Made by a program: the position numbers and the translations under genes. A model generated the notes under the pieces. The model saw only the letters and a program-made list of their open reading frames with translations. It had not been told where the DNA came from and did not search any database. A DNA stretch of 64,000 bases from Dehalococcoidia bacterium (lineage in GTDB: Bacteria > Chloroflexota > Dehalococcoidia > GIF9 > UBA5629). Below are positions 18,303 through 64,000 of this stretch, piece after piece. The DNA lies in the NCBI GenBank assembly GCA_041653995.1, contig JBAZEK010000001.1:1184747-1248746 (forward strand), written 5' to 3'. Position 1 is the stretch's first letter. Each line of letters opens with the position of its first letter.

Positions 18303-18325
18303 TAATCAACTATTTTGGAGGCGAG

Positions 18326-18655: not shown

Positions 18656-18657
18656 TA

Positions 18658-19362: not shown

Positions 19363-19389
19363 ATGCGTTATAACAGGAGAGAGACGTCC

Positions 19390-46131: not shown

Positions 46132-46256
46132 TTTCCCTGCTGTTACCTGCCTTGCCTTAAAAGTATAGCTTCAGGTGGTTTTGCAGGCAATTTATTTCGA
46201 TTATAATTACTTTTACCTGCTATTAAAAAATGGCATGTGTCAGGAGGATAGTCGGT

Positions 46257-47991: not shown

Positions 47992-50253
47992 ATGGCAGCT
48001 GACAGTTCACATATACGACGGCAAGCTGCGCGCAGCGGATTCACTCTGTGCGAGGCTATAATACGGTCGTTCTCCCGGCTATCGATCAAAGAGGGCGCGC
48101 CCTGGCGCACACTGCTGGCCGTTTCGGCCAACTCTCAGGCCGTGGTTGAGGCGGCCCTGCTTGCGGCCAGGCAGGCGGAATGCCCCATATTTTTCGCAGC
48201 TACGCTCAACCAGGTCGACATCGATGGGGGCTATACTGGTTGGGATCATGCGAGCTTCGCTACCCTGGTACGGCGCACTGCCGGAAAAACGGATTTCAAA
48301 GGCCCCATTCTGCTCGGGGTAGACCATGCCGGACCCTGGCTGCGCGACAGGCACACCAGTGAAAAATGGCCTTACAGCCGTACAATGAAAGCGGTCGAAA
48401 TATCTCTGGAATCGGCTATTGCAGCAGGATTCGACCTGCTTCATATCGATCCCACCGTTGACCGGGGCCTTCATCCCGGCGGAACACTGCAACTTAACAC
48501 GATCATTGACAGGACCGTCCAGCTGATCAAGCACTGCGAGTCCTTCCGCATCAAACACAGACTGCCCCCGGTGGCATACGAGGTAGGCACCGAGGAGGTC
48601 AAGGGCGGGCTGGCAGATGAAAACATGTTCAGCAATTTCCTGTCTGGCCTGCGTATAAGGATGACGCAGGAAGGACTGAGCCGGGCATGGCCGTGCTTTA
48701 TCGTGGGTAAAGTTGGAACGGACCTGGACACGACCCTGTTCAGCCCGCAGATGGCGCAGGAGCTTTATGATATCGCACGCCACTATAACCTGGTGCTGAA
48801 GGGACATTACACCGACAACGTGGAAAATCCGGTCGCCTACCCGGCCAGCAGAATGGGGGGCGCCAACGTCGGACCCGAATTTACCGAAGTCGAATGCGAT
48901 GCCCTTTTCGAGCTTGAATCGAGGGAAAAGTCTGCCCATGTCAGGAACGCTGCAGAGCCTTCGATATTTAAAGAATCTCTCGCACAGGCTGTGATCCGGT
49001 CCGGCAGATGGCGTAAATGGCTTCACCCGGAGGAGGCCGGCAAGCCGTTCGACGCGCTACCCGCCGAAAGGCAAAACTGGCTGCTCAAGACAGGCGCGCG
49101 CTACATCTGGACGGACAGGAAGGTAAGGGAAGCGCGCAAACGCCTGTATGCAAATCTGGTAAAAGACGGTTTCGATCCCCACCGGTATGTGGTCGAGCGC
49201 ATCTCGCAGCAGATATTGAAATACTTCCGCGCCTTCAACCTGTATGGCTCAATCCCCGTGCTTGAAAAGGAATTCGAGCGGCGCAGAAGGCTCCCGTTCT
49301 GGGACGAAGGGCAGGTGCTGGCCGCGGGAGAATTGATCGTAGAGATCATGCGCCCGTCGGTGGACATGCCTCTGGATACAACCGGACGATTCGTGGGGCC
49401 ATTCCCCAGCGGCGCACCCGCCATCTTCGCGGATGCCTCCGCGCGTATAGGGAAACGGACAGGCTTTGTGGGTTCGCTGGGACAGGACGGCTTCGGCCGT
49501 CTGCTACTGAGTAGGTTCACGAATGACGGCATTGACCACAAACTCATAGCTTCAATCAAGGGCCGGCCCACGGGCTGCGCCTTTGTGGCCTATGACAGGG
49601 ATGGCGGGCGTAACTTTATCTTTCACATCGCGGGCACCGCCTCCGACCGCCTGCCTTCTATCTCACGGGCCGTGAAATATGCAAGGTCTTTCCGCCACCT
49701 GCACCTTATGGGCTGCTCGCTCTCCATAAGCAGCGCCATAAGAGAAGCCTGTATGGCGATGGCGGAGGCTATCAAAGAGTCTGGCGGCAGCGTCAGCCTC
49801 GATCCCAATTTACGGCCGGAATTGCTCTCAGCCGGGGAGTGCAGAAACATACTGTTGCCCGTTGTTCGCCTGGCAGATATCGTTCTTCCCAGCGGGAACG
49901 AGGCCGGCCTGCTGGTGCATGAACCCGATATCGATACTGCCTGCCTCCGCCTGATCGAGTTGGGAGTGAAGATCGTGGTGCTTAAAAAAGGCGACAGCGG
50001 CTGCCGCGTGTTCACCCGCGAATCCACCTTCGACGTCCCAGGTTTCAAAGTAAATGCCGTCGACCCCACCGGCGCGGGCGACTGCTTCGATGCCGGTTTC
50101 ATCAGCGGCTACCTCGATAATCTGCCGCTTTACGAGACAGCCAGACTGGCCAATGCCATGGGCGCTCTGGCCGCATCCAGACTGGGACCGATGGAGGGCG
50201 CCTTCAGCCTCAACGAGGTTATGAACTTTATAAAAAAACAGCGGCGGGATTAA
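47992..50253 (+). CDS. Fusion protein: an N-terminal GatZ/KbaZ-family domain (tagatose-bisphosphate aldolase non-catalytic subunit / AgaZ) and a C-terminal PfkB-family carbohydrate kinase
   Basis: N-terminus aligns with E. coli GatZ (ATLNQVDIDGGYTGW, GVDHAGPW, GFDLLHIDPT, YEVGTEEV). C-terminus has the PfkB signature DPTGAGDCF and a GG dipeptide region. Confidence 0.7.
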   Translation: MAADSSHIRRQAARSGFTLCEAIIRSFSRLSIKEGAPWRTLLAVSANSQAVVEAALLAARQAECPIFFAATLNQVDIDGGYTGWDHASFATLVRRTAGKTDFKGPILLGVDHAGPWLRDRHTSEKWPYSRTMKAVEISLESAIAAGFDLLHIDPTVDRGLHPGGTLQLNTIIDRTVQLIKHCESFRIKHRLPPVAYEVGTEEVKGGLADENMFSNFLSGLRIRMTQEGLSRAWPCFIVGKVGTDLDTTLFSPQMAQELYDIARHYNLVLKGHYTDNVENPVAYPASRMGGANVGPEFTEVECDALFELESREKSAHVRNAAEPSIFKESLAQAVIRSGRWRKWLHPEEAGKPFDALPAERQNWLLKTGARYIWTDRKVREARKRLYANLVKDGFDPHRYVVERISQQILKYFRAFNLYGSIPVLEKEFERRRRLPFWDEGQVLAAGELIVEIMRPSVDMPLDTTGRFVGPFPSGAPAIFADASARIGKRTGFVGSLGQDGFGRLLLSRFTNDGIDHKLIASIKGRPTGCAFVAYDRDGGRNFIFHIAGTASDRLPSISRAVKYARSFRHLHLMGCSLSISSAIREACMAMAEAIKESGGSVSLDPNLRPELLSAGECRNILLPVVRLADIVLPSGNEAGLLVHEPDIDTACLRLIELGVKIVVLKKGDSGCRVFTRESTFDVPGFKVNAVDPTGAGDCFDAGFISGYLDNLPLYETARLANAMGALAASRLGPMEGAFSLNEVMNFIKKQRRD

Positions 50254-50279
50254 TAATCCCGCCGCCGTCCCTTCGGCGT

Positions 50280-51968
50280 TTATTTGCCCTTTGCCCGGTC
50301 CTCCTCCTGCAGCACGCGCCGCAGCACCTTGCCCACCATAGTCTTGGGCAGAGCATCGCGGAACTCCACATGCTTGGGCACCTTGTAGGCAGTCAGCTTC
50401 TCACGGCAGAAGACCTGTATCTCCTCGACCGTGCATGATTGGTCTGTTCTCAATACCACCCATGCTTTCACGGCTTCGCCCTGCGCGGCATCTGGCACGC
50501 CGGCCACACCCACCTCGAGCACGGCGGGATGCTGAGCGATGATCTCCTCGATCTCCACCGGGAAGACCTGATGGCCGCTGGGCTTGATCAGGTCCTTCTT
50601 GCGGGATGTTATAAAGAGATATCCGTCCTCATCCAGGTAACCTATATCGCCGGTATACAGCCAGCCATCGCGCAGCATCTCTGCAGTAGCTTCAGGACGG
50701 TTCCAGTAACCCTGCATGATGTGTGGCCCCCTGGCTATGATCTCGCCGGCGTCACCGGCCTGGAGTTCAGTTTTTCCCGTATCTATATCGACTATCTTGA
50801 TGACGGTATCAGGGGTGGGCATGCCAACCGCCCCCTCCTTCCATTTGCCCAGGAACGGACCCATAGCGAGCACGCCCGATTCCGTAAGGCCGTAAGCTTC
50901 CACAATCTTGCCGCCCGTGACCACCTCCCACTGCCGCTTGGTCTCAGGCAGAAGGGGAGCCGCAGCAGCCACCGACGACTTCATGGTCTTGAAATCGATC
51001 TTGCCCGACTTGACCTCGGGCCTGTTCATAAGCCCGATGAAGATGGCCGAGATGGCGGGGAAGAAGGCCGGTTTGACCTTTTTAATCGTGGCCAGAACAT
51101 CCTTTACCTCGCGAGGATTGGGGATAAGAGCCGTGGGATAACGGCCTGCGATGGCTGTAGACAGCAAAATTACATTGCCGTAAACATGGAAGAAAGGCAT
51201 TAGCAACACGAGCACATCCGTCCAATCCGTTGCCAGCGGCTTGGACCAGGAATGTATCTGCCGGCCGTTCATGAATATGGCCTCATGGCTCAGCATCACG
51301 GCTTTGGGCGTGCCCGTCGTGCCGCCACTGAACAGCAGCAGGCCGGTATCTTTACCGCTCACCTTGACGTCAGGTTTCTTATCGCCGGCATGTTTCTTCA
51401 TCAGGTCCTGCAGCCAGATGTCGTTTCCCTGCACCTTTTCCAGATATTGTCCCTGTTTTTTCTCCATCAGCAGAGTGAACATCAGTTTAATAAAAGGCGA
51501 CAGGTATTCTTTGACGCTGGTAACGATAAGCAGTCGCAGCTTGGTGCGTCCCTGGATTTTCTTCACCAGGTCGTAGAATGCAGTCAGCACAATTGCAACT
51601 TCGGCGCCGCATTCCTTGAGCGCAAATTCGAGCTCCGCCTCGCTGTAGAGCGGGTTAACCGGCACGGCGATAGCTCCGGCTTTCCAGATGGCAAGCTGGC
51701 TAATGACTATATTGGGTGAGTTGGGCATCAGCATGACAACGCGGTCGCCCTTCTTAACCCCCTGAGCCGCAAGGCCGGCAGCCAGTATATCGCTCAGGTG
51801 GTCGACTTCCTTGTAGGTCATCCACCTGCCCTTGAACCAGATCATTTTATGCGCGGGCCTCTCCCGGGCAACATCCGCGACGTCTTCGAAAAGCTTCTTA
51901 TCGGGATAGGGTTGTAAAGTTTTGGGTACACCCTTGTCGTAATGCTTGAACCATGGATAGTCTGCCAT
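50280..51968 (-). CDS. Long-chain-fatty-acid--CoA ligase (FadD-like AMP-dependent synthetase), paralog 1 of 7
   Basis: YPWFKHYDKGVP N-terminus, LFSGGTTGTPKAV (AMP motif), YGLTE, TGDIGYLDEDGY, and a C-terminal YKVPKHVEFRDALPKTMVGKVLRRVL matching E. coli FadD. Start at the ATG with a GGAGGAG SD. Confidence 0.85.
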   Translation of the reverse strand: MADYPWFKHYDKGVPKTLQPYPDKKLFEDVADVARERPAHKMIWFKGRWMTYKEVDHLSDILAAGLAAQGVKKGDRVVMLMPNSPNIVISQLAIWKAGAIAVPVNPLYSEAELEFALKECGAEVAIVLTAFYDLVKKIQGRTKLRLLIVTSVKEYLSPFIKLMFTLLMEKKQGQYLEKVQGNDIWLQDLMKKHAGDKKPDVKVSGKDTGLLLFSGGTTGTPKAVMLSHEAIFMNGRQIHSWSKPLATDWTDVLVLLMPFFHVYGNVILLSTAIAGRYPTALIPNPREVKDVLATIKKVKPAFFPAISAIFIGLMNRPEVKSGKIDFKTMKSSVAAAAPLLPETKRQWEVVTGGKIVEAYGLTESGVLAMGPFLGKWKEGAVGMPTPDTVIKIVDIDTGKTELQAGDAGEIIARGPHIMQGYWNRPEATAEMLRDGWLYTGDIGYLDEDGYLFITSRKKDLIKPSGHQVFPVEIEEIIAQHPAVLEVGVAGVPDAAQGEAVKAWVVLRTDQSCTVEEIQVFCREKLTAYKVPKHVEFRDALPKTMVGKVLRRVLQEEDRAKGK

Positions 51969-52013
51969 TAAGATCTCCTCCATTATTTATGTTTATTATT
52001 TATAAGTGTGCTG

Positions 52014-53675
52014 CTACGATGGTTTTTTAGCCTTTTCCTCCTCCTGCAACACCCTCCTCAGTATTTTACCAACGAGTGTCTTGGGCAATGCGTCGCGGAA
52101 CTCGATAAACTTGGGCACCTTGTAGGCTGTTAATTTGTCCTTGCAGAAAGATTGAAGCTCTTCTGCAGAGACATTCTGTCCCGGACGCAGGATCACCCAT
52201 GCCTTAACAGCCTCAACCTGTTTCGGATCCGGTATCCCCGCCACGCAGGCCTCTGCTACAGCGGGATGAGTGGTGAGTATCTCCTCCACTTCCTTCGGCC
52301 AGACCTGGTGGCCGCTGGGCTTGATGAGATCTTTCTTGCGCGAGGTCAGGTAGAGGTAACCGTCCTTGTCCATATAGCCGATGTCACCCGTATACAGCCA
52401 GCCGTCCCTGATCATCTCCGCTGTGCCTTTGGGATTGTTCCAGTAGCCCTGCATGATCTGCGGGCCTTTGCCGACTACCTCGCCTTCCTCGCCGTAAGGT
52501 AACTCCTTATCAGGATCCGCGACATCTACGAATTTAATTATGACATCGGGCAGGGGCAGGCCGACCGCGCCTTCCTTCCATTGACCCTTGAGCGGGCCGA
52601 CAGTAAACACAACTGTGGATTCTGTAAGGCCATAGGCCTCGAGAATGGGGGCGCCCGTCATAGCTTCCCAGCGCTGCTTGGTTTCGACCATCAGCGGTAT
52701 GGCCCCTGAGAGGCAATATTTCAGGCAGGTGAAGTCCACCTTCCCCGCCGCGACTTCAGGGTGCGCCATCAAGCCGATGAACAACGTAGGCACACCGGGC
52801 ATAGAGCCGGGCCGAACCTTCCTGATGGTGTCGATCACGTCATCGAGGTCACGCGGATTGGCCACAACTGCCAGCGGGCTGCGAACACAGAGGGAACTGG
52901 CGATAACCCCGTTAAAGCCATAGGCATGGAACAGGGGCATGAGCGCCATCGTGTAGTCGTCGTGAGTTATCAGGCCCTGTTTGTTCCAACTATTGGTCTG
53001 AAGGCCGACCGCCGCCATGTTCCTGAAGGAAAGCATAGCGCCCTTGGGAGCACCGGTTGTTCCGCCGCTGAACAAAATGATAGCGGTATCATCCATCCTG
53101 GGTTTTACAACAGGAGCGGGATCCTTGGCGTGTTTGTCCATGAACTCGTCCATCCACACATCGCCCTTCTCAAGCTGCACGGTATGCGGCTTCTTTGCTT
53201 CCGGAAGCATGTAGTCTTCGAGCGAGGTGGCGATAACCTTTTTCAGCTTGGTGCGCGACTGTACCTTCTTGATATTTGCATACAGCAGGTCCCAGACAAT
53301 GATTATCTCCGCATCTACAGTGGTCAGCGCATGTACCAGTTCATCCTCGTTATACAAAGGATTAAGCGGAACAAAAATGGCGCCGGCCTTCATAGTGCCG
53401 AAGGCGGCTATAAGCTGCTGAGGTGTATTGAGTAACATGGTGGCCACGCGGTCTCCCTGCTTCACGCCGTTGGCGATCAGCGCCGAAGCCATTATCTCGA
53501 AAAGCCTGCTTGCCTCCTTGTAAGAGAAATACCTTCCCTTGAAATACATGAATGTGTGATCCGGCATCTCGCGGGTTGTGTCCGCTATGACATCAAGTAA
53601 AGTGATTTCCGGATATGGCGCCAGGGAATGGGGCACCCCTGCATCGTAAGATTTGTACCATGGATAATCCGCCAC
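52014..53675 (-). CDS. FadD-like acyl-CoA synthetase, paralog 2
   Basis: Same motif set (LFSGGTTGAPKG, YGLTE, TGDIGYMDKDGY, GKILRRVL). GTG start preceded by GAGGAGG. Confidence 0.8.
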   Translation of the reverse strand: MADYPWYKSYDAGVPHSLAPYPEITLLDVIADTTREMPDHTFMYFKGRYFSYKEASRLFEIMASALIANGVKQGDRVATMLLNTPQQLIAAFGTMKAGAIFVPLNPLYNEDELVHALTTVDAEIIIVWDLLYANIKKVQSRTKLKKVIATSLEDYMLPEAKKPHTVQLEKGDVWMDEFMDKHAKDPAPVVKPRMDDTAIILFSGGTTGAPKGAMLSFRNMAAVGLQTNSWNKQGLITHDDYTMALMPLFHAYGFNGVIASSLCVRSPLAVVANPRDLDDVIDTIRKVRPGSMPGVPTLFIGLMAHPEVAAGKVDFTCLKYCLSGAIPLMVETKQRWEAMTGAPILEAYGLTESTVVFTVGPLKGQWKEGAVGLPLPDVIIKFVDVADPDKELPYGEEGEVVGKGPQIMQGYWNNPKGTAEMIRDGWLYTGDIGYMDKDGYLYLTSRKKDLIKPSGHQVWPKEVEEILTTHPAVAEACVAGIPDPKQVEAVKAWVILRPGQNVSAEELQSFCKDKLTAYKVPKFIEFRDALPKTLVGKILRRVLQEEEKAKKPS

Positions 53676-53763
53676 TTTAAACCTCCTCAAACAATATTTA
53701 CGGCATATTTTAAACGCGCTGCTAATTATACTAAATTAACCGGGCGCTCTATATCCCCGACTT

Positions 53764-55407
53764 TTACTTGCTTTTCTCCTCATCCTGTAGAATTCTACGC
53801 AGTACCTTACCCACGAATGTTTTGGGCAGCTCTTTACGGAACTCGAAGTGCTTGGGAACTTTGTAGCCGGTGAGTTTCTCCCTGCAATATTTCTGCAATT
53901 CCTCTGCAGTCACGCTTTTCCCCTCTTTCAGCACGACCCAGGCCTTGACGGCTTCCATCTGTCTGGGATCAGGTATCCCGCCCACACATACTTCAGCCAC
54001 GGCCGGATGCTCCTGGAGAATCTCTTCCACCTCACGCGGCCAGACCTGGAAGCCACCGCATTTTATCAGGTCCTTCTTGCGAGACGTCAGAAAGATATAG
54101 CCATCCTCATCCATGTAGCCGATATCGCCGGTGTAAAGCCAGCCGTCCCGCAGAATCTCTTTGGTCTCTTCCGGCCGTTTCCAATAGCCCTGCATGAGCT
54201 GCGGCGCCTTGATAATAATCTCTCCCGGCTGCCCGACAGGCATACCTGAAGACCCGCTGTCTATATCAACGATACGTACAATGGTATCCGGCAGGGGCAG
54301 GCCTATGGAGCCCTCCTTCCATTTACCCTTGGCAGGAGTGGTAAGCATGGCCATGCCGCTCTCAGTGAGTGCGTAACCCTCGGTCAACCGGCCGCTGATA
54401 TGCTTCTCGAACTGCTCCTTGGTCTCACGCATCAGCGGCGCTGCGCCCGATGTAGCCATGCGAATGGTTTTGAGATCACCCATTTTGAGATCCGGATATT
54501 CCAGCATGGAGATGAACATGGTGGGAGCGGCCCCCATATTAGTAATACCTTGATTCTTAATAGTTTCAATCATGCCCTTGATATCACGCGGATTGGCGAT
54601 GAGCACCGAGATATTATGCTGAACCAGCGCCATCCCGAAGCTGGCATAGATGCCGAAAGCATGGAAGAGCGGCAGAGGCACAAGGAATTTTTCGTCCCAC
54701 CAGAGTGAAATCTCGCGGAACCAGGCCTCCACCTGCATACCTGTGATCACCAGGGACTTATGGCTCTCCATAACACCCTTGGGAGTGCCCGTGGTGCCTC
54801 CCGAGAACAGGATCAAGGCTGTATCGTCCGGCGCCACTTTTACGCCGGGGACCGGTTTTCCTGCATATTTCCTGCTAAGGTCGAGCCACCAGTCGTCGCC
54901 TGGCTCAATAGCGGTCGCCGCCTTCTCTTTATTCGGCACGGTGTAATCATCGAATTCAGCCAGGATAACGTTGCGTACGCTGGTTTTCTTCTGCAGCCTT
55001 TTGACCATGGGATACCACAGGTTTAGCACCACCGCTGTTTCAGCATCGATATCATTTAACCTCGCTTCCAGTTCGAACTCGGTGTAGAGTGGATTGAGCG
55101 GCACCACAATAGCGCCCAGCTTCCAGGCCGCGAAGAAAATAATATACTCCTGGGGGCAGTTAAGGAAGAGCACGGCTATGCGGTCACCCTTCTTCACACC
55201 CATGGAAGCCAGCGCCGCAGCCATAGCATCGCTCTCACTGACGATCTCTTTATAGCTGAGCTTCCTGTCCTGGAAGATGATCATGGGATAATCAGGACGC
55301 TCGTTTTTAGCTTCCAGCAAGACATCCATAATGGTCTTACGGGGGTATGGCTCAAGAGAGCGGGGTACGCCGGGATCATAGCTTTTGTACCATAGATGTT
55401 CGGTCAA
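53764..55407 (-). CDS. FadD-like acyl-CoA synthetase, paralog 3
   Basis: LFSGGTTGTPKGV, YALTE, TGDIGYMDEDGY, GKVLRRIL. TTG start with a GAAGGA SD. Confidence 0.8.
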   Translation of the reverse strand: MTEHLWYKSYDPGVPRSLEPYPRKTIMDVLLEAKNERPDYPMIIFQDRKLSYKEIVSESDAMAAALASMGVKKGDRIAVLFLNCPQEYIIFFAAWKLGAIVVPLNPLYTEFELEARLNDIDAETAVVLNLWYPMVKRLQKKTSVRNVILAEFDDYTVPNKEKAATAIEPGDDWWLDLSRKYAGKPVPGVKVAPDDTALILFSGGTTGTPKGVMESHKSLVITGMQVEAWFREISLWWDEKFLVPLPLFHAFGIYASFGMALVQHNISVLIANPRDIKGMIETIKNQGITNMGAAPTMFISMLEYPDLKMGDLKTIRMATSGAAPLMRETKEQFEKHISGRLTEGYALTESGMAMLTTPAKGKWKEGSIGLPLPDTIVRIVDIDSGSSGMPVGQPGEIIIKAPQLMQGYWKRPEETKEILRDGWLYTGDIGYMDEDGYIFLTSRKKDLIKCGGFQVWPREVEEILQEHPAVAEVCVGGIPDPRQMEAVKAWVVLKEGKSVTAEELQKYCREKLTGYKVPKHFEFRKELPKTFVGKVLRRILQDEEKSK

Positions 55408-55421
55408 CTCAGCATCCTTCA

Positions 55422-55451
55422 GACCGGTCCCGGCAGCCGCCGGGACCGGTC
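55422..55451. terminator. Perfect 13-bp GC-rich stem-loop (GACCGGTCCCGGC...GCCGGGACCGGTC) between paralogs 4 and 3, flanked by an A/T-rich tract
   Basis: Read directly. On the plus strand it is followed by TTCATTATTTTT. On the minus strand it follows the paralog-4 stop. Confidence 0.45.
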
Positions 55452-55482
55452 TTCATTATTTTTAAAATTTAAAAATAACCTG

Positions 55483-57171
55483 CTATTTTGCTTTGGCTTT
55501 CTCCTCCTCCACCAGTACCCTTCTCAGCACCTTGCCCACCATAGTTTTGGGCAACTCGGTTCGGAACTCGACAAATTTAGGTATCTTGTAGGCCACCAGC
55601 TTCTCCTTGCACCAGGCCTGTATCTCCTCCGCTGTAGCGGTCTTGCCCGCCTCCATCACCACCCAGGCCTTAACCGCCTCACCCTGCTTGGCATCAGGTA
55701 TGCCGGCCACGCAGGCTTCGGCCACATCAGGATGTGCAGCTATGACTTCCTCGACCTCCCGCGGCCATACCTGGAAACCGCTGGGCTTGATCAGGTCCTT
55801 TTTACGCGAGGTGATGAAAAGATAACCATCCTCATCCAGATACCCGATATCGCCGGTGTAGAGCCAGCCATCCCGCAGCATCTCCTTGGTCTCCTCAGGC
55901 CTGTTCCAGTATCCCACCATGAGCTGCGGCGCCTTAATAACTATTTCGCCTTCCTGTCCGGCGGGTAAATCGCCCTCACCCGTCTCCAAATCGCCGATCC
56001 TGGCAATCACATCGGGCAGCGGCATGCCGGTGGAACCCTCCTTCCATTTGCCCAGGTAAGGTGTAACGCAGGAGGCCATGGTAGCCTCGGTCATGGCATA
56101 GCCTTCGACTATCCGGCCGCCCGTCAATTCCTCAAAGCGTCTCTTGGTATCGGCCAGCAGCGGAGCGGCGCCGGACACACAGAACTTCATCGATTTGAAA
56201 TCGACTTTCCCGGCTTTGACCTTGGGATGCTCCAGCAGAGCAATATAAAGGGCGGGAACTGCCGGGAAGAAAGTCGGTTTATCATGTTGAATAGTAGCTA
56301 TCAAATCTTCGCGGTCGCGAGGATTGGGAACGAGGGACAATGTCACATGGCATACTATGGCGGTGCTCATAACACCATAGGTCGCGTATACATGGAAAAG
56401 CGGCAGGCAGGCCATGATGACATCCTTGTAGCTCTCGATCATGCCACCGAACCACGCAGCATACTGCAGGGCTGTTATCACCATGGAATGATGCGTGCCT
56501 ACCACGCCCTTGGGGGTGCCCGTGGTGCCGCCGCTGAACAGTATGAGTGCAGGATCCTGCGGTGCAACCTTCACATCCGGCCGCCCGGCGCCGGCATACT
56601 GCTTGATCAGGTCCGTCATCCACAAATCTCCCTGCTCCAGTTCTACATAGTGACCTTCCTTTTTCTCCTTGACCAGCGTGAACAACACCTTAAGCACCGG
56701 CGGGAGGTAATCCTTGATGCTGGTAGCTATGACCAGCTTTACGCTGGTGCGCGGCTGTATCTTCTTAAACTGCTTGTAGAACATGGTCAGAACGACTACA
56801 GTCCCAGCCCCGCAATCTTTGAGGGCGTGCTCCAGCTCGCTTTCCGTATACATGGGATTTAAATGCACCAGTATGGCGCCGACCTTCCAGGCCCCCCAGC
56901 GGCAGATAAGCGCCTGCGGGCAGTTGGGCATGAGAAGCGCGACCCTGTCGCCTTTCTTGACGCCTTTGGCAGCCAGGGCAGCCGCGAATTCATCGCTCAG
57001 CTTCTGAAACTCAGCATAGGATATCTTCCTCTTCTTGAAAAGCATCATGGGATAGTCGGGTTTCTCTTTGACTGCCTCATCCACGTAATCTATGAGGGTT
57101 TTCTGGGGATATGGTTCCAGTGTGTGGGGTACACCGGGATCGTAATTCTTTAACCAGCGATATTCTGCCAT
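55483..57171 (-). CDS. FadD-like acyl-CoA synthetase, paralog 4
   Basis: MAEYRWLKNYDPGVP..., LFSGGTTGTPKGV, YAMTE, TGDIGYLDEDGY, GKVLRRVL. ATG with a GGAGG SD at -8. Confidence 0.85.
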   Translation of the reverse strand: MAEYRWLKNYDPGVPHTLEPYPQKTLIDYVDEAVKEKPDYPMMLFKKRKISYAEFQKLSDEFAAALAAKGVKKGDRVALLMPNCPQALICRWGAWKVGAILVHLNPMYTESELEHALKDCGAGTVVVLTMFYKQFKKIQPRTSVKLVIATSIKDYLPPVLKVLFTLVKEKKEGHYVELEQGDLWMTDLIKQYAGAGRPDVKVAPQDPALILFSGGTTGTPKGVVGTHHSMVITALQYAAWFGGMIESYKDVIMACLPLFHVYATYGVMSTAIVCHVTLSLVPNPRDREDLIATIQHDKPTFFPAVPALYIALLEHPKVKAGKVDFKSMKFCVSGAAPLLADTKRRFEELTGGRIVEGYAMTEATMASCVTPYLGKWKEGSTGMPLPDVIARIGDLETGEGDLPAGQEGEIVIKAPQLMVGYWNRPEETKEMLRDGWLYTGDIGYLDEDGYLFITSRKKDLIKPSGFQVWPREVEEVIAAHPDVAEACVAGIPDAKQGEAVKAWVVMEAGKTATAEEIQAWCKEKLVAYKIPKFVEFRTELPKTMVGKVLRRVLVEEEKAKAK

Positions 57172-57221
57172 GCAATCAACCTCCAAATCAATATATTCTA
57201 ATGCCGTGACTATATGTTTAA

Positions 57222-57251
57222 GCAGTCCCCGGCTGTGCAGCCGGGGACTGC
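57222..57251 (-). terminator. Perfect 13-bp stem-loop (GCAGTCCCCGGCT-GTGC-AGCCGGGGACTGC) just downstream of the paralog-5 stop
   Basis: Read directly. Followed on the minus strand by UUAAACAUAUAG. Confidence 0.45.
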
Positions 57252-57264
57252 CTCGTTCACAGAC

Positions 57265-58956
57265 TTACTTCTTGCTTTTTGACGCCTCTTCCTCCTGCAG
57301 AACCCTTCTCAGCACCTTGCCGACCATTGTCTTGGGCAGGTCGCTGCGGAACTCCACGAACTTGGGTATCTTGTAGGCGACCAGCTTCTCCTTGCACCAG
57401 GCCTGTATCTCCTCCGCCGTAGCCGTCTTACCGGCCTCCAGCACTACCCAGGCTTTCACAGCTTCACCCTGCTTGGCATCGGGAATACCGGCCACGCTGA
57501 CTTCCGCCACCGCTGGATGGCTGCTGATTACCTCCTCGACTTCCCTCGGCCATACCTGGAAGCCGCTGGGCTTGATCAGGTCCTTTTTACGCGATGTGAT
57601 GAAAACGTAACCGTCATCATCCATATAACCTACATCGCCCGTATAGAGACAGCCGTCACGCAGCATCTCTTTAGTCTCCTCAGGCCGGTTCCAGTACCCC
57701 TTCATCAGCTGCGGGGCCTGGAAAACGATCTCCCCCTCCTTGCCGGCTGGCATATCGCCTTCGCCGGTCTCAATGTCGCCGATCCTGATTATGACGTCCG
57801 GGAGCGGCATCCCCACAGACCCCTGCTTCCAGGTTCCGCGATAAGGCGTGCAGCAGCAGGCCATGGTAGACTCGGTCAACCCGTAGCCCTCAACGATACG
57901 GCCGCCGGTGAGGTCTTCGAAACGCTTCTTTGTCTCGTACAGCAACGGGGCTGCGCCGGAGTTGCAGCATTTCATTGAGCTGAAATCCACCTTACCTGTT
58001 TTGACTGCCGGATGCTCCAGCAACGCTATGAACATGGCAGGCACGGCGGGGAAGAACGAGGGCTTATCATGATTGATGGTAGCGACCACATCGTCGCGGT
58101 CGCGGGGATTGGGTACCAGAGACATCGCCGCATGCCCGACGATGGCCGTGCTCATGACCGCATACGTGGCGAACGAGTGGAAAAGCGGCAGCACCAGCAT
58201 CATCACATCTTTGTAAGGTTCGACTATCTCACCGAACCAGCTGCTGAATTGCAGACCTGTGATTACCTGCGAATGGTGCGTGCCCACTACACCCTTGGGT
58301 GTGCCTGTCGTCCCGCCGGAGAAAAGAATGAGGGCGTCGTCGCCCGGCAGCACTTTCACGTCGGGCCGTTTGGCTCCGGCCTGGGCTTTAATCAGGTCGG
58401 TCAGCCAGAAATCGCCGGGCTGCAACACGATGCGATGGCCTTCCTTTTTCTCTTTGACCAGTGTAAATAGAACCTTGAGTACGGGCGGAAGGTAATCCTT
58501 GATGCTGGTCGCTATAATCAGCTTCAGTTTGGTCCTCGACTGTAATTTCTTAACTGTATTGTAGAACAGGGTCAGCACCACTACAGTCTCTGCGCCGCAG
58601 TCCTTAAGGGCATGTTCGAGTTCGGACTCTGTATACATGGGGTTCATATGTACCAGGATAGCGCCCGCTTTCCAAGCGCCCCAACGGCAGATAATGGCTT
58701 GCGGGCAATTAGGCATGATCAGGGCTACGCGGTCTCCCTTTTTTACGCCTTTGGCTACCAGCGCAGCCGCAAATTCATCGCTGAGCTTCTGTATCTCAGC
58801 ATAGGACATCTTCCTCTTCTTAAAAAGAACCATGGGGTAATCGGGATGTTCTCTCACGGCATCATCCACATAATCTACAAGCGTCTTCTGGGGATAGGGT
58901 TCCAGCGTGGCCGGGACCCCTTTGTCATAGTTTTTTAACCATCTTTTGTCGGACAA
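57265..58956 (-). CDS. FadD-like acyl-CoA synthetase, paralog 5 (about 85% identical to paralog 4)
   Basis: MSDKRWLKNYDKGVP and the same motifs. TTG start with an AAGGAGG SD at -8. Confidence 0.85.
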   Translation of the reverse strand: MSDKRWLKNYDKGVPATLEPYPQKTLVDYVDDAVREHPDYPMVLFKKRKMSYAEIQKLSDEFAAALVAKGVKKGDRVALIMPNCPQAIICRWGAWKAGAILVHMNPMYTESELEHALKDCGAETVVVLTLFYNTVKKLQSRTKLKLIIATSIKDYLPPVLKVLFTLVKEKKEGHRIVLQPGDFWLTDLIKAQAGAKRPDVKVLPGDDALILFSGGTTGTPKGVVGTHHSQVITGLQFSSWFGEIVEPYKDVMMLVLPLFHSFATYAVMSTAIVGHAAMSLVPNPRDRDDVVATINHDKPSFFPAVPAMFIALLEHPAVKTGKVDFSSMKCCNSGAAPLLYETKKRFEDLTGGRIVEGYGLTESTMACCCTPYRGTWKQGSVGMPLPDVIIRIGDIETGEGDMPAGKEGEIVFQAPQLMKGYWNRPEETKEMLRDGCLYTGDVGYMDDDGYVFITSRKKDLIKPSGFQVWPREVEEVISSHPAVAEVSVAGIPDAKQGEAVKAWVVLEAGKTATAEEIQAWCKEKLVAYKIPKFVEFRSDLPKTMVGKVLRRVLQEEEASKSKK

Positions 58957-59019
58957 GATAAGAACCTCCTTAGATTTGTTATTATGATTAAGCTTTCAAC
59001 GCCTAATTACCTCGAAGTA

Positions 59020-60720
59020 CTACTTCGCCGCTTTTTGCCTTGCTATTTCCTCCTCAACCAGTACACGTTTCAGGATCTTGCCCACCAGTGTCTTGGGTAA
59101 CTCGGCCCTGAATTCCACGTGCTTGGGCACTTTATAGGCTGTTAGTTTCTCACGGCAATGCGCCTGTATCTCTTCAGCTGTCGCGGTCTCCCCCTGACGC
59201 AGCACGACCCAGGCCTTGACAGCCTCGACCTGGTAAGCGTCGGGGATACCCGCCACTCCTACTTCCGCTACCTTTGGATAGGTGCTGATACATTCCTCTA
59301 CCTCGCGCGGCCAGACCTGGAAGCCGCCGGGCTTGATCAATTCCTTCTTGCGCGACGTGATGAAGAGGCAACCTTCCTCGTTGAGATAGCCGATATCACC
59401 CGTGTACAGCCAACCATCGCGAATCATCTCCGCCGTGGCCTCCGGCCTGTTCCAGTAACCCACCATGATCTGCGGGCACCTGGCAACGATCTCACCCTCC
59501 GTCCCCAGCGGCATGTCTTTCTCACCGGTCTCAACGTCAACTATTCGCAGAATAACGTCCGGCAGGGGAATGCCGGCCGATCCGGGCGTCCACTTGCCCT
59601 CCACCGGGCCCAGGGTAATGGCCGCGGTCACCTCGGTCATGCCATAGCCCTCGATCAGCTTGCCGCCTGTCAATTCCTCAAAACGCCGCTTGGTCTCAGG
59701 CAGCAGCGGCGCCGCAGACGCCACGCAGAGCTTCATAGATTTAAAATCAACCTTGCCCGCCTTTACAAGCTTATGCTCCAGCAGTGCAATGAACATTGTA
59801 GGGACGGCAGGGAAGTATGCAGGTTTCACCTTGTTTATGGTCTTCACCACATCGTCACGATCTCGCGGGTTGGGGACAACTGCAAGTGTATTATGCCCCA
59901 TGATGGATGTGCCCATCACCCCGGCAAATCCATAAACATGGAAGAGCGGCATGATCATCATAACCACATCATCCCATTCCGTCAGAACACTATCGTTCCA
60001 GACCTTGAGCTGCCAGGCCTCTGCAACCAGGCATTTATGTGTGATGATTACACCCTTGGGAACGCCGGTAGTGCCTCCACTGAAAAGCAGCAGCGCAATA
60101 TCTTCGGATACAGGCTTGTGGTCAGGAATAGCATCACCGGCGTGCTTGCTCATGAGCTCGGCCATCCAGAGGTCGCCTGGCTGGAGAGTAATTCGGTGGC
60201 CTTCCTTCTTCTCCTTGAGCAGCGTAAACATAGTCGCAAGGAACGGCGGAAGATATTCCTTGATATTGGTGGCAATGACCAGCCTGAGATTTGTCTGCGG
60301 TTGTATCTTCTTGACCGTGGCATAAAAAGGTGTCAACACGATGGCAACCTCGGCCCCGCATTCCTTAATCGAGTGCTGTAATTCATGCTCGGTATACATC
60401 GGATTGAGCGGCACAGGTATAGCGCCGGCCTTCCAGGCTGCAAACGAGCTGATAAAGCCCTGCGGGCAGTTGGGCAGGAGTACGGCAACGCGGTCGCCTT
60501 TCTTAACTCCGTTAGCCTTGAGGGCAGCGGCAAACACCGAATAGAGCCTCACGAGCTCGCTGTAGCTGATGTTCCTGTCTTTGAAAATCATGAACCTGTG
60601 ATCGGGCCTCTTCTTGGCGGCCTCCTCAACCACGTCTAAAAAGGTGACCTGCGGGTATGGTTCCAGGCTGTGCGGCACCCCCGCATCATAGCTTTTAAAC
60701 CACTGATATGATTCTGTCAT
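59020..60720 (-). CDS. FadD-like acyl-CoA synthetase, paralog 6
   Basis: LFSGGTTGVPKGV, YGMTE, TGDIGYLNEEGC, GKILKRVL. ATG with a GGGAGG SD. Confidence 0.8.
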   Translation of the reverse strand: MTESYQWFKSYDAGVPHSLEPYPQVTFLDVVEEAAKKRPDHRFMIFKDRNISYSELVRLYSVFAAALKANGVKKGDRVAVLLPNCPQGFISSFAAWKAGAIPVPLNPMYTEHELQHSIKECGAEVAIVLTPFYATVKKIQPQTNLRLVIATNIKEYLPPFLATMFTLLKEKKEGHRITLQPGDLWMAELMSKHAGDAIPDHKPVSEDIALLLFSGGTTGVPKGVIITHKCLVAEAWQLKVWNDSVLTEWDDVVMMIMPLFHVYGFAGVMGTSIMGHNTLAVVPNPRDRDDVVKTINKVKPAYFPAVPTMFIALLEHKLVKAGKVDFKSMKLCVASAAPLLPETKRRFEELTGGKLIEGYGMTEVTAAITLGPVEGKWTPGSAGIPLPDVILRIVDVETGEKDMPLGTEGEIVARCPQIMVGYWNRPEATAEMIRDGWLYTGDIGYLNEEGCLFITSRKKELIKPGGFQVWPREVEECISTYPKVAEVGVAGIPDAYQVEAVKAWVVLRQGETATAEEIQAHCREKLTAYKVPKHVEFRAELPKTLVGKILKRVLVEEEIARQKAAK

Positions 60721-60756
60721 CAATTCAACCTCCCTGCATAATTATTACTGTGGCAG

Positions 60757-62463
60757 CTATGTGTGATTGGTTTCCCCTCCCTGTTTGCTTGTCTCTTCCT
60801 CGATCAATACCCTCCTCAGAATCTTGCCTATCTGGGTTTTAGGCAGATTAGTTTTAAACTCGATATATCGCGGCACCTTATAGGCCGACAGTTTGGATTT
60901 GCAGTGCTCCCTGAGCTCCTCCGCCGTACAGGTCATTCCTGCATTCAGCACCACCCACGCCTTCACTGCTTCGCCCTGGTACTGATCGGGCACTCCGGCC
61001 ACACTGGCCTCCATAACCGCCGGGTGCTCATGTAATATCTCCTCTACCTCGCGCGGCCAGACTTGAAAGCCGCTGGTCTTGATTATATCTTTCTTGCGGC
61101 TGTGCAAGAAGAGGTGACCATCGTTGTCCAGATAACCAATATCACCGGTATAAAGCCATCCATCCCTGAGCATATCGGCCGTTTCCTGCGGTCGCTTCCA
61201 GTAGCCCGCCATAAGATTCGGCGCCTTAAAACATATCTCGCCGAGCTCGCCGGCTTTCATATCGCCGCGGCCGGTCTCGGAATCCACTATCTTAATGACG
61301 ACATCGGGCAACGGCATGCCAACCGAGCCTTCCTTATTAACGCCCATAATAGGATTGAGCGTTGCGGCCTGCATGGTCTCCGTCATGGCATAGCCTTCCA
61401 GGAGCCGTCCGCCTGTCATATTCTCAAACTGTTTCTTCGTATCCGCCATAAGCGGGGCTGCACCCACAATGCATATCTTCATGCCCGACAGCTTTACCTT
61501 GCCCGATTTCACCAGAGGATGATTCATAATCGCGATATAAAACGTAGGAACGCCGGGCATGAAGGCCGGCTTATACTTTTGGATACTTTTAACCACATCG
61601 GTGACATCGCGTGGATTCGGGATAAGGATGCAGGAAGAACGGTTGATCATAGCCGTGCCCAGCGCGCCCGCACATCCAAAAACATGGAAGAGCGGCATAG
61701 TCAGGGCCACCCTGTCCTCCCATTTCTCCAGTACAGGACCGAGCCAGGCGTTAATCTGCATTGCAGTCATTATGAGGGCGCCGTGAGTACCCACGGCGCC
61801 CTTGGGAGTGCCGGTTGTACCACCGCTGAAAAGTATCACGGCCGCATCCTCCGGCCTGACTTCAATATCAGGCCTGGGATCGTTCTTATGTTGTCGCAGC
61901 AGCTCCTGAAACCACACATCCCCCTTTTGCAGGGAAATCCTGTAGCCCTCCTTCTTCTCCCTGGCCAGCGTGAAAAGCAGACCGAGATGCGCCGGCAGAT
62001 ATTCCTTGATACTGGTGGCGATAACGGTCCGGATAGTGGTATCGGCCTGAATATTCTTCACAGCCTGGTAAAAAGGATTAAGCACGATCACAGCAGAGGC
62101 GTCCACCTCGGTCAACGCATGCTTCAGCTCGTGTTCGGTATAAAGAGGATTGATAGGGACCGCTATTGCCCCTGCCTTCCAGATGCCCTGGAATGCCAGT
62201 ACCATCTGCGGTGAATTGGGAAGGAGCAGGGCTACACGCTCCCCCTTTTTTATTCCGAGAGCAACCAGGCCTGCGGCCAGGGCGTCGCTCTGCCGCACAA
62301 AGTCGTGATATAGAAGCCTGTGTCCTTTGAAATAGAACATGGCGCGGTAGGGTTTTGCTTTAGCCGACTCATCGACCACCTCGATCATGGTCGTTCCTGG
62401 ATAAGGCATAAGTGTGCGAGGCACACCTTCATCATAATTCTTAAACCAGGGGTAGTTATCCAT
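60757..62463 (-). CDS. FadD-like acyl-CoA synthetase, paralog 7 (first in the transcription direction)
   Basis: MDNYPWFKNYDEGVP, LFSGGTTGTPKGA, YAMTE, TGDIGYLDNDGH, GKILRRVL. Confidence 0.8.
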   Translation of the reverse strand: MDNYPWFKNYDEGVPRTLMPYPGTTMIEVVDESAKAKPYRAMFYFKGHRLLYHDFVRQSDALAAGLVALGIKKGERVALLLPNSPQMVLAFQGIWKAGAIAVPINPLYTEHELKHALTEVDASAVIVLNPFYQAVKNIQADTTIRTVIATSIKEYLPAHLGLLFTLAREKKEGYRISLQKGDVWFQELLRQHKNDPRPDIEVRPEDAAVILFSGGTTGTPKGAVGTHGALIMTAMQINAWLGPVLEKWEDRVALTMPLFHVFGCAGALGTAMINRSSCILIPNPRDVTDVVKSIQKYKPAFMPGVPTFYIAIMNHPLVKSGKVKLSGMKICIVGAAPLMADTKKQFENMTGGRLLEGYAMTETMQAATLNPIMGVNKEGSVGMPLPDVVIKIVDSETGRGDMKAGELGEICFKAPNLMAGYWKRPQETADMLRDGWLYTGDIGYLDNDGHLFLHSRKKDIIKTSGFQVWPREVEEILHEHPAVMEASVAGVPDQYQGEAVKAWVVLNAGMTCTAEELREHCKSKLSAYKVPRYIEFKTNLPKTQIGKILRRVLIEEETSKQGGETNHT

Positions 62464-62509
62464 TTCGACTCCGATCCGCATCATCAGCGGGCGAGGTGTT
62501 CCCGTTTAT

Positions 62510-62561
62510 GGTCAATCGTTAATTGACCGGTCAATTTTAACATAGTTACTCGTAAAGTCAA
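62510..62561 (-). promoter_or_regulatory. Candidate sigma70 promoter (minus strand: TTGACT-N16-TAAAAT). The predicted +1 falls inside a perfect 12-bp palindrome TTGACCGGTCAA (62523-62534), with further GTCAA half-sites nearby.
   Basis: Hexamers and palindrome read directly. Located about 60 nt upstream of the paralog-7 ATG, in the only sizable gap upstream of the ligase array. Confidence 0.5.
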
Positions 62562-62606
62562 ATTTGATAGCAGCATGGCAACGCGTTTGACAATCCGTAT
62601 GTCTAC

Positions 62607-63659
62607 TTATTTGGATACCGACTGCTGGCGCAATTGCCCGCAGGCCGCCTGTATGCCCGCGCCCTTTTGTTCCCGCTGTGTCACAGTTATACCGGATTGC
62701 TCAAGCACGCGGCGGAAAGACATGATGACAGACGCCTCGGGCTGCCTGTAATCGCTTCCCGGAACCTGGTTGAATGGAATGAGGTTTACATGGCAGTTCA
62801 GCCCTTTGAGCAGTGAGGACAGCGCGGCCGCCTCAGCAGGGCTGTCGTTAATCCCTTTGAGCAGGCAATACTCGAAGGTTACACGCCGGCCGGTATGGTT
62901 GCTGTAATGGTGGCAGGCTGCGATTATATCCTTCAGCAGGTAGCGCGACATACCCGGCACCAGCTTTCTGCGCAATCCGTCTGCGGCGGCATGCAGCGAG
63001 ACAGCCAGCGTAAGTTGCAGCCGCTCAGCGGCCAGACGGTATATGCCGGGAACATAACCGATCGTGCTCACTGTTATATTGCGCATCCCGACCTTGAGTT
63101 CATCGTTGATCAGGCGCACAGCAGCCAGTGTAGCATCGTAATTGAGCAGCGGCTCTCCCATTCCCATGAAGACAACGTGGCTGACCCTTCCGTCCGCAGC
63201 AAGTATCTTTTTACGTACGGCGGCCTCGCCCACGGTTAAAACCTGATCGACCATTTCACCCGCCGCAAGATTGCGTTTGAAACCTCCGGCGCCCGTGGCG
63301 CAGAATGCGCAACCGACCGGGCATCCGACCTGAGTGGATATACAGCAGGAGAATCGTTCCTCGTAAGACATGCCCACGGTCTCCACCAGCTCGCCGTAGT
63401 AAGGCGACAGCAGCAGCTTGTACGTGCCGTCCCTGCCTGTGCTGATCTCCTTGACAGAGGATCTCCCGACCGCCCACAACTGGTCCAGTTTTATCCTGAA
63501 CGGGACCGGGAGATCGGTCATGTCATTGACCTGCCGGCATCCGCGCCTGTAAATCCAATCGGCCACCTGTTTGCCGCGGAATTTCTTCTCCCCGAGTTCG
63601 GCCGCCAACTCTTTCAACTGGTCGCCATTAAGACCCAGTAACATTTTTTTCGACATCAT
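62607..63659 (-). CDS. rlmN: 23S rRNA/tRNA (adenine-C2)-methyltransferase RlmN (radical SAM)
   Basis: CAFCATG radical-SAM cluster motif. RlmN-like N-terminus (GKQVADWIYRRG) and C-terminal Cys (GIQAACGQL). Confidence 0.85.
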   Translation of the reverse strand: MMSKKMLLGLNGDQLKELAAELGEKKFRGKQVADWIYRRGCRQVNDMTDLPVPFRIKLDQLWAVGRSSVKEISTGRDGTYKLLLSPYYGELVETVGMSYEERFSCCISTQVGCPVGCAFCATGAGGFKRNLAAGEMVDQVLTVGEAAVRKKILAADGRVSHVVFMGMGEPLLNYDATLAAVRLINDELKVGMRNITVSTIGYVPGIYRLAAERLQLTLAVSLHAAADGLRRKLVPGMSRYLLKDIIAACHHYSNHTGRRVTFEYCLLKGINDSPAEAAALSSLLKGLNCHVNLIPFNQVPGSDYRQPEASVIMSFRRVLEQSGITVTQREQKGAGIQAACGQLRQQSVSK

Positions 63660-64000
63660 GTCTCTCCCTGACTACAACATTATGTAGCACCGTCAAGCAG
63701 GCTGCAAGCCGGGCTCAATACAGTTTGACCACCCCGCTTATTAGTAGTAGCATGAAATTGTGGGGCAGTCAGACAGAGTAGCCCCAAGGGAGGTCGGAAA
63801 TGGTCAAGAAACAGGCCATGTACGTAGAATGGCACTTTCCTCGAGAGTGCTCTCCCCTGCCGGAGGAGCAGAGATAGACTGCGGACGTGCAAAAGGGGAG
63901 AGCCAGTAAAACTCCTGAGCTCTCCGTTAAGTAGCAAAAAGGCTACGAAATATCAAGGATAAGGCACAGTATTGAGGCTTACCTCTGTGGGAGAGTAGGG

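Follow-up and report, generated by a model that had tools for sequence, protein, structure and literature searches.

A tandem array of seven FadD-type acyl-CoA synthetase genes in a Dehalococcoidia bacterium

A stretch of 64,000 nucleotides (nt) from a Dehalococcoidia bacterium (contig JBAZEK010000001.1; the whole stretch is referred to below as the window) contains seven co-oriented, full-length genes for FadD/LcfA-type AMP-forming acyl-CoA synthetases, arranged in tandem on the minus strand between positions 50280 and 62463. We number the genes from A1 (50280) to A7 (62463); the direction of transcription is from A7 to A1. The array had been picked out in a sequence-only reading of the window, and its central claim, seven co-oriented full-length paralogues with the full set of ligase motifs, was borne out by the open reading frames (ORFs), by Pfam and by a check of the motifs. 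Taken as the longest ORFs, the genes occupy 50280-51983, 52014-53690, 53764-55407, 55483-57186, 57265-58956, 59020-60723 and 60757-62484 (minus strand); the array then spans 50280-62484 and the proteins measure 547-575 amino acids (aa), the sizes given in that reading. Starts supported by a Shine-Dalgarno (SD) sequence (Table 1) yield protein lengths identical to those from gene callers on two independent assemblies and, because these starts were used, the intergenic gaps become 36-93 nt rather than the 30-78 nt first reported. An SD site precedes each start, and each cistron would thus have a ribosome-binding site of its own. The GGAGG sequence with 8-nt spacing that had been assigned to all seven genes is found in five of them, the two others being A3 (Table 1) and A7, which has only GGAG.

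All seven proteins have the hallmarks of the ANL superfamily. Both domains score above the Pfam gathering cut-offs over the full profile length (AMP-binding, PF00501, 267-303 bits vs. a cut-off of 29.9, E values of 1e-79 to 1e-90; AMP-binding_C, PF13193, 68-79 bits vs. 24.5), and the catalytic motifs accompany them. The N-terminal motif, P-loop, G motif, A5, A7, A8/hinge, fatty-acyl-CoA synthetase (FACS) signature and A10 Lys were found in 7/7 proteins by regular expression and alignment, and the catalytic motifs are conserved across all orthologues in the alignment. The FACS signature (DG[WC]LYTGD[IV]GY...SRKK) and the G motif (P[LF]FH) are of the FadD type in each paralogue. The N-terminal motif and FadD-like C-terminus described earlier are likewise present throughout, the sole motif deviation being the hinge of the A7 gene product, HSRKKD, compared to TSRKK(D/E) in the other six. 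We take the N-terminal W-x-K-x-YD-x-GVP motif (7/7) and an LPPxLxxLFTLxKEKK insertion (5/7) to be FadD/LcfA features. The top NCBIfam matches of all seven are long-chain-fatty-acid-CoA ligase models, including the E. coli FadD equivalog NF006523 as well as NF005220 and NF004114, and no aryl-acid ligase model occurs among the top 25 matches of any paralogue. Relatives of known structure are distant (E values of about 1e-71 and weaker) and comprise A. fulgidus FadD-1, 4-coumarate-CoA ligase (4CL), malonyl-CoA synthetase, FadD13 and FadD5. Benzoate-CoA ligases in the PDB score about 1e-48 to 1e-49 vs. 1e-71 for FadD-1, 4CL and malonyl-CoA synthetase, a difference with which aromatic substrates are still compatible. 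Assignment of substrates by PDB homology was dropped, the nearest solved structures being too distant. A1-A7 are best classed as FadD-like members of the ANL superfamily and not as equivalogs of any characterised enzyme.

Table 1. Coordinates of the array genes, their predicted signals and the flanking genes
Feature	Position	Strand	Remarks
A7 acyl-CoA synthetase paralogue, 568 aa	60757-62463	minus	first gene of the proposed operon; gate Cys; bootstrap 100; dN/dS 0.05-0.11
A6 paralogue, 566 aa	59020-60720	minus	gate Phe; bootstrap 100; dN/dS 0.03-0.07
A5 paralogue, 563 aa	57265-58956	minus	TTG start; gate Thr; dN/dS 0.02-0.045
A4 paralogue, 562 aa	55483-57171	minus	gate Thr; dN/dS 0.05-0.08
A3 paralogue, 547 aa	53764-55407	minus	TTG start; weak SD, AAGGA; gate Ile; dN/dS 0.03-0.07; lacks insertion LPPVLKVLFTLVKEKKEG
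A2 paralogue, 553 aa	52014-53675	minus	GTG start; gate Phe; bootstrap 100; dN/dS 0.06-0.07; lacks most of LPPVLKVLFTLVKEKKEG
A1 paralogue, 562 aa	50280-51968	minus	last gene; gate Asn; bootstrap 100; dN/dS 0.03-0.06
Predicted sigma-70-type promoter	62534-62561	minus	-35 TTGACT (62561-62556), 16-nt spacer, extended -10 TG-n-TAAAAT ending at 62534
Perfect 16-bp palindrome AATTGACCGGTCAATT	62521-62536		core TTGACCGGTCAA at 62523-62534; overlaps 3' end of the -10; candidate repressor operator
A5/A4 intercistronic GC-rich stem-loop, 15 bp	57220-57253	minus	z = -3.7; no U tract
A4/A3 intercistronic GC-rich stem-loop, 14 bp	55421-55452	minus	z = -6.3; no U tract on minus strand
Intrinsic-terminator-like hairpin after A1	50232-50274	minus	20-bp stem and U run; -35.4 kcal/mol; z = -6.6
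RlmN (radical-SAM rRNA methyltransferase)	62607-63656	minus	Pfam RlmN_N and Radical_SAM; conserved upstream boundary
GatZ/PfkB fusion, 753 aa	47992-50253	plus	GatZ/KbaZ-like tagatose-bisphosphate aldolase subunit and PfkB sugar kinase
CoADR (CoA-disulfide-reductase-like flavoprotein)	46230-47948	plus	C-terminal rhodanese domain; conserved convergent downstream boundary

The promoter predicted upstream of A7 (Table 1) is the best site in the region 49800-64000, with 10/12 matches in addition to the TG extension, and about 20 loci from different species align with the same architecture before their first array gene. The palindrome that overlaps it occurs only once in the window. Its pattern, [TC]TGAC-N3-[TC]CAAT, directly follows the -10 before the first array gene in the window and in 20 loci fetched from other genomes (designated below by L numbers). 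In the fetched loci the pattern gave 34 strand-hits in total vs. about 6 expected, with only 4 scattered matches away from array promoters. Promoter and palindrome pattern are also found in loci with one or two ligase genes, suggesting that control by a dimeric repressor is ancestral and was kept as the array expanded. Repressor control at the A7 promoter is, in our view, probable from this conservation. A consensus scan for internal promoters returned 8 promoter-like sites, compared to 9.3 ± 2.9 in shuffled sequence, and only the A7 site was strong. The earlier proposal that the genes are transcribed in part independently was not supported, since there is one strong promoter-like site only, the remaining sites do not exceed those in shuffled sequence and the intercistronic hairpins lack a U tract.

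These two GC-rich hairpins, already reported in the sequence-only reading, were confirmed between A5 and A4 and between A4 and A3, the latter preceded by an AU-rich hairpin (55455-55479), and both have a stability far above that of shuffled sequence (z values in Table 1). A role as classical terminators was rejected, no U tract following either of them on the minus strand. A hairpin of -26 to -39 kcal/mol and of different sequence follows A5 in 6/6 other species checked (L001, L003, L006, L007, L011 and L028), and a strong hairpin follows A4, or an additional copy named A4', in four of the six (L003, L006, L011 and L028). The position of the intercistronic hairpins is thus conserved and their sequence is not; they may be elements of mRNA stability or attenuation. 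The terminator-like hairpin after A1 overlaps the 3' end of the convergent GatZ/PfkB gene, and strong hairpins after A1 were also seen in six other species. Scans with Rfam models and for tRNA genes gave no match in or near the array. The only Rfam match in the window is a bacterial large signal recognition particle (SRP) RNA (RF01854, 190 bits) at 28146-28407 on the minus strand, and the window has no tRNA genes.

The nearest genomes are all metagenome-assembled genomes (MAGs) of uncultured Dehalococcoidia/Dehalococcoidales (Chloroflexota). Across Dehalococcoidia species the locus is syntenic, with ligase genes between RlmN upstream and the convergent CoADR downstream, and the RlmN boundary is kept in all loci with captured upstream sequence. 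The array size, which the sequence-only reading had suggested comparing among related genomes, does vary, the locus holding 1 to 8 ligase genes: one in L025, two in L020-23, L026 and L043, at least three in L019 (A7, A5 and A3, then the contig end), six in L011, L028, L010, L008, L072 and L083 (A3 absent), seven in the window, L003, L007 and L067, and eight in L006 and L030, where the extra copy A4' lies between A4 and A3. L001 has six complete genes and the cut end of A7 at the contig start.

In a bootstrapped neighbour-joining tree of 119 proteins, based on simple corrected distances, every paralogue forms its own orthologue group, with bootstrap values of 84 (A3 with A4'), 76 (A4), 54 (A5) and full support for the other four (Table 1). 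A1-A7 form one clade (bootstrap 82), whose sister group is made up of single-copy genes (54-58% identical) from Anaerolineae and Acidobacteria. Neighbours in the array are often sisters (A4/A5, A3/A4' and A1/A2), as serial tandem duplication would predict. Since the more distant locus L019 contains A3, the absence of this gene from six-gene arrays points to a later loss. The most likely history is one of tandem duplication at this site, accompanied by the loss of some copies. A4 and A5 are 74-75% identical to single-copy Dehalococcoidia genes, and their identity to the outgroup is 55-56% compared to 47-52% for the other five copies; they appear to be the copies closest to the ancestral single-copy gene.

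Among the two-gene genomes, the A7-like first gene of L020 (8505-9965) stops just after the hinge (A8), so that little or nothing of the C-terminal domain is left. Five species (L020, L021, L022, L023 and L026) share this truncation, together with an altered A5 motif (YSLTE). The gene would either encode a maintained protein consisting of the N-domain only or be an old pseudogene.

Each of the seven genes has a low ratio of non-synonymous to synonymous divergence (dN/dS) relative to its orthologues in other species, 0.02-0.11 overall (Table 1), over dS values of 0.6-3. Purifying selection maintains all seven copies. Pairwise protein identity among them is 49-64%, and 81% for A4 and A5, in place of the 45-55% and about 85% estimated earlier; synonymous sites between paralogues are saturated. 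The earlier view that A4 and A5 are a recent pair did not survive measurement: the two differ with a dN of 0.135, a dS of 1.6 and a proportion of synonymous differences (pS) of 0.66, and orthologues of both are present in all large-array species. Because of this dS and the separate orthologue groups, their 81% identity is explained by constraint and not by youth, and a recent duplication or gene conversion was rejected on the same grounds as well as the pS. An identical 26-nt stretch at 55783 and 57568 lies inside the conserved region encoding the hinge motif SRKKDLIKP.

We also asked where the orthologue groups differ, defining as group-specific those alignment columns with a conservation of at least 85% inside every group and at least four states among the groups. 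There are 12 such positions, six of them at A4 residues 233-268, around the G/gate motif, and three at 355-381. The gate residue (A4 position 264, four after the His of the P-L-F-H G motif) is fixed within each orthologue group and differs among the paralogues (Table 1). The corresponding gating residue is Trp234 in ttLC-FACS, Ile240 in FadD5 and Leu226 in FadD13, and the G motif is considered to affect which acyl chains are preferred (bioRxiv 10.1101/2024.10.29.620959). An insertion of 10-14 aa, LPPVLKVLFTLVKEKKEG, is present in five paralogues and mostly missing from A2 and A3. A4 positions 233/235 and 365 presumably match further segments that line the pocket in luciferase and 4CL structures. 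The pocket residues are thus not identical among the seven proteins, as they might have been, but differ at the gate. The group-specific fixed differences at the gate motif favour the diversification of substrate range proposed earlier over an effect of dosage, and we favour copies that are non-redundant, separate orthologue groups each having their own gate and neighbouring residues.

A link to beta-oxidation comes from relatives. A4-group genes outside the array adjoin thiolase-family genes in L012, L016, L017 and L018; co-location of the canonical fad type is complete in L017 and partial in L018, L016 and L012. L017 is the 2.46-Mb complete chromosome OY970123.1 of a related genome, and its beta-oxidation cluster (3584-19374) encodes two acyl-CoA dehydrogenases, three thiolase-family proteins (two of them SCP-x-type), a YsiA-type TetR, an A4-type ligase, a BKACE, CoA-transferase A/B and a second ligase resembling Lig8 (see below). 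A box, TATATAACATTGTTTC (GAAAC...GTTTC type), is found upstream of the TetR gene and again upstream of the acyl-CoA dehydrogenase/ligase pair. The presence of A4-type orthologues in beta-oxidation clusters supports a catabolic role for the family in fatty-acid metabolism. Of the substrates and pathways suggested in the sequence-only reading, fatty acids and beta-oxidation are backed by this context; aromatic or alicyclic acids and syntrophy received no specific support.

The likeliest explanation of these data is that the seven FadD/LcfA-type paralogues form a single operon, probably controlled by a repressor, that arose through serial tandem duplication at one site and broadens the range of acids the cell can use; we give this reading a probability of roughly 0.7. 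Each enzyme would carry out the standard two-step ANL reaction, in which a carboxylate and ATP give acyl-AMP and pyrophosphate (PPi), and acyl-AMP and CoA then give acyl-CoA and AMP. Together the seven copies would widen the range of carboxylic acids trapped as CoA thioesters, the most probable substrates being fatty acids that differ in length or branching, and the CoA esters would feed beta-oxidation genes located elsewhere in the genome. Transcription would start at the one conserved extended -10 promoter upstream of A7, with the 16-bp palindrome over it as the probable site of a dimeric repressor, and would end at the hairpin and U run after A1. The two intercistronic stem-loops would probably adjust the relative mRNA levels of promoter-proximal and promoter-distal genes.

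Several observations weigh against this interpretation. No gene for a helix-turn-helix regulator adjoins the array, and the TATATAACATTGTTTC box of the relatives' beta-oxidation cluster is different from the array operator. None of the partners of a ligase in a canonical fad operon (acyl-CoA dehydrogenase, hydratase/dehydrogenase, thiolase and FadR-type regulator) is encoded anywhere in the 64-kb window. Operon status is read from sequence alone, and the AT-rich intergenic regions could hide weak internal promoters. None of A1-A7 reaches a curated NCBIfam cut-off, their scores being mostly about half of it (NF006523, 385-422 vs. 884 bits; NF005220, 410-485 vs. 1116; NF004114, 442-474 vs. 766; the loosest, subfamily NF004837, 394-423 vs. 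476), and because all scores fall below the curated cut-offs the substrate is not transferable by homology. The best PDB matches cover mainly residues 200-556, at E values of about 1e-71, and because no solved structure is close, the pocket mapping, except for the gate residue, follows motif positions of other ANL enzymes. Lastly, the deeper nodes of the neighbour-joining tree, built on simple distances, have bootstrap values of only 47-82%.

Two candidate regulators came into view. The YsiA-type TetR of the relatives' beta-oxidation cluster was rejected as the array regulator, its box being different. A 157-aa ORF at 34797-35270 (plus strand), 15 kb from the array and judged a MarR-like winged helix by eye only, is the sole regulator-like gene noticed in the window.

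The alternative that survives best involves a module of glycyl-radical enzyme (GRE) and CoA-ester genes lying upstream of RlmN on the same strand, past the end of the window at 64000 (L068:2-9491; L067:1-3079). In order, it encodes Lig8, a FabK-like reductase, an enoyl-CoA hydratase, an 881-aa CrtI-like/PaaE-like fusion, a 798-aa GRE and its activase. Lig8 is an eighth, distant ligase, 33-38% identical to A1-A7. The sequence-only reading had found no fad-type gene adjacent to the array; this holds inside the window, but beyond it the enoyl-CoA hydratase, the FabK-like reductase and Lig8 lie 4-10 kb upstream. The GRE has the glycyl motif RVAGF and a Cys loop, NNCMVP, that differs from the GCVEP of dehydratases and eliminases and is without the catalytic Glu; it scores below all NCBIfam equivalog cut-offs and looks like a member of an uncharacterised GRE family.

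The seven ligases could be entry enzymes for chemically different acids (aryl-alkanoic, alicyclic, isoprenoid or dicarboxylic, for example) rather than chain-length variants of a single fatty-acid activator, and belong, with the GRE/CoA-ester module, to a lineage-specific catabolic island, a view we consider unlikely. The sample names of many of the nearest genomes suggest peat, lake-sediment, wetland or spring material, and peat, lake-sediment and wetland habitats would make such acids plausible substrates. It is doubtful that the ligases admit distinct non-fatty carboxylates and work together with the GRE, the enoyl-CoA hydratase, the FabK-like reductase and the CrtI-FNR protein, even if GRE and activase do lie directly upstream of RlmN in all genomes with 6-7-gene arrays for which upstream sequence was captured, and not in those with one or two genes. 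GRE relatives from 80 metagenome loci (43-84% identical) also keep CoA-ester neighbours, a ligase among them, and in about 40 longer metagenome contigs CoA-ester enzymes are often adjacent. Yet those relatives do not have RlmN or the array as neighbours, and in the next-closest lineages, L084 and L111 (GRE 83-84% identical), the full module is found without adjoining RlmN or array, leaving the co-occurrence to a single clade. We regard the module as a unit apart from the array, equipped with a ligase of its own, because its relatives occur without the array and the adjacency is lineage-specific. Moreover, the housekeeping gene RlmN separates module from array, the array is preceded by its own conserved promoter and operator, which do not occur elsewhere in the fetched loci, and promoter, operator and locus predate the GRE adjacency, being present in 1-2-gene genomes. 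One further locus has been counted in favour of the island: L041 (3207-11982), from a MAG labelled delta proteobacterium, encodes a distant GRE (28-29% identical) with its activase and, 3 kb downstream of them, an A4/A5-like ligase (78-80% identical), and thus presents a second neighbourhood of GRE and ligase. That ligase is frameshifted in the assembly, and the MAG may be mis-binned.

Compared to the broad-range catabolic operon that we prefer, we think it quite improbable that exogenous fatty acids are activated for membrane-lipid synthesis or remodelling. A small-genome organism might benefit from such scavenging, as the 2.46-Mb chromosome of the related genome and the lack of adjacent catabolic genes in the window would allow, but the A4-type orthologues of relatives sit in beta-oxidation and not lipid-synthesis clusters, no acyltransferase genes lie nearby, and seven specificities seem excessive for lipid salvage. 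Very little speaks for the possibility that all copies activate the same substrate and simply raise the enzyme level. The catalytic motifs are the same in 7/7, there is apparently one promoter, and A4 and A5 have most group-specific residues in common; against this, dosage arrays are usually young and nearly identical, while these copies have diverged to synonymous saturation and remain in separate orthologue groups across species under strong purifying selection. Their fixed differences also cluster at the acyl-pocket gate, the 10-14-aa insertion differs, and non-identical pocket residues in themselves disfavour amplification for dosage.

Equally hard to credit is a reverse operation in fermentation, in which acyl-CoA, AMP and PPi would yield acid and ATP. 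AMP-forming operation in reverse has reportedly been proposed for the acetyl-CoA synthetase of Syntrophus aciditrophicus, and nothing direct points to it here beyond an anaerobe-like gene content (the nearby GRE and a cluster at 3761-11749 resembling methylenetetrahydrofolate reductase (MTHFR) and Hdr proteins). No gene that generates PPi or is linked to it was seen close to the array, and the FadD-type clade and the beta-oxidation context of orthologues suggest acid activation instead. The notion of an expanded or collapsed repeat in the assembly can be dismissed, as the sequence-only reading had already supposed, the copies sharing only 60-80% DNA identity even in their best-conserved 300-nt blocks, an independent ENA assembly (L067) having an identical A4 protein inside the same seven-gene array, a Logan assembly (L068) having an identical RlmN followed by A7, A6 and the start of A5 up to the contig end, and orthologous arrays recurring in about 16 species-level GTDB genomes and about 15 IMG metagenome contigs made with different assemblers.

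Around the array, CoADR is convergent with the ligase locus and adjoins it in every species checked, single-gene loci included, and a tie to CoA-thiol supply is possible. The GatZ/PfkB gene lies between array and CoADR in large-array genomes with captured downstream flank and is absent from 1-2-gene loci. The nearest transporters, LysE and MFS proteins (42453-44286), are 6 kb from the array. The rest of the window carries housekeeping genes (MetRS, FtsH, NDK, the SRP RNA and others) and an MTHFR/Hdr-like/GltB-like cluster. The latter (3761-11749, minus strand) encodes an HdrB-like protein (CCG), an HdrC-like protein (4Fe-4S), a GXGXG/GltB-like protein, two glutamate-synthase-FMN-like proteins and MTHFR, and resembles an electron-bifurcating methylene-THF reductase complex. 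The GC content is 61-63% in the first 12 kb of the window vs. 50-58% in most of the remainder.

Non-dehalogenating Dehalococcoidia are seen in metagenomes of many habitats and are uncultured, and their diet has been deduced almost wholly from gene content, the related genomes considered here all being metagenome-assembled. Each ligase copy is kept under selection, suggesting that the breadth of carboxylic-acid uptake is a selected trait in this clade. The locus offers a clean, datable case of a metabolic gene family growing from one to seven or eight copies at one site. Its seven naturally diverged, related ANL enzymes are well suited to the study of the gate and pocket residues that set substrate range, and the conserved promoter/operator provides a handle for its regulator. 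The literature we searched yielded no description of this Dehalococcoidia array. New here are the size of the array, the clarity with which its stepwise growth can be followed and an architecture of promoter, operator and hairpins that is conserved in an uncultured clade.

Conceptually, the array is a large but ordinary gene-family expansion, of a kind known from Pseudomonas aeruginosa and mycobacteria. It resembles E. coli FadD and Bacillus LcfA in its two-domain architecture, P-loop, G motif, A5, A7, hinge/L motif, 25-residue FACS signature and A10 Lys. It differs in having Ser at the hinge (TSRKKD), where the L motif of FadD5 has Asp (DRKKD), as E. coli FadD presumably does too. It also comprises seven tandem copies instead of one, in a proposed operon without beta-oxidation or transport genes. 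T. thermophilus ttLC-FACS (PDB 1ult/1v26; E value 1e-44) and plant 4CL (5bsm and 3a9u; 1e-71) are distant structural homologues by sequence search. The gate and pocket segments used for the group-specific residues are defined on ttLC-FACS, 4CL and luciferase; the Trp gate of ttLC-FACS occurs in 0/7 array paralogues.

Mycobacterial FadD paralogues lie scattered over the genome, belong to particular lipid pathways and count the FAAL subclass among them. The M. tuberculosis set is likewise a large lineage-specific ANL expansion in which the G-motif gate varies (Ile240 in FadD5, Leu226 in FadD13) and has been tied to how the acyl chain is accommodated, and FadD13 and FadD5 are among the PDB matches of A1-A7; the array copies differ in being contiguous, monophyletic and FACS-like. 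In P. aeruginosa, the linked FadD paralogues fadD1 and fadD2 have been shown by experiment to prefer different chain lengths (PMC2958839), the same principle of adjacent FadD paralogues that we propose for the array. There, two genes have two possible transcripts with mapped promoters; here, seven genes would depend on a single promoter predicted from the sequence. If the substrates are indeed ordinary fatty acids of different lengths, the Dehalococcoidia array would be a larger version of the Pseudomonas and mycobacterial case.

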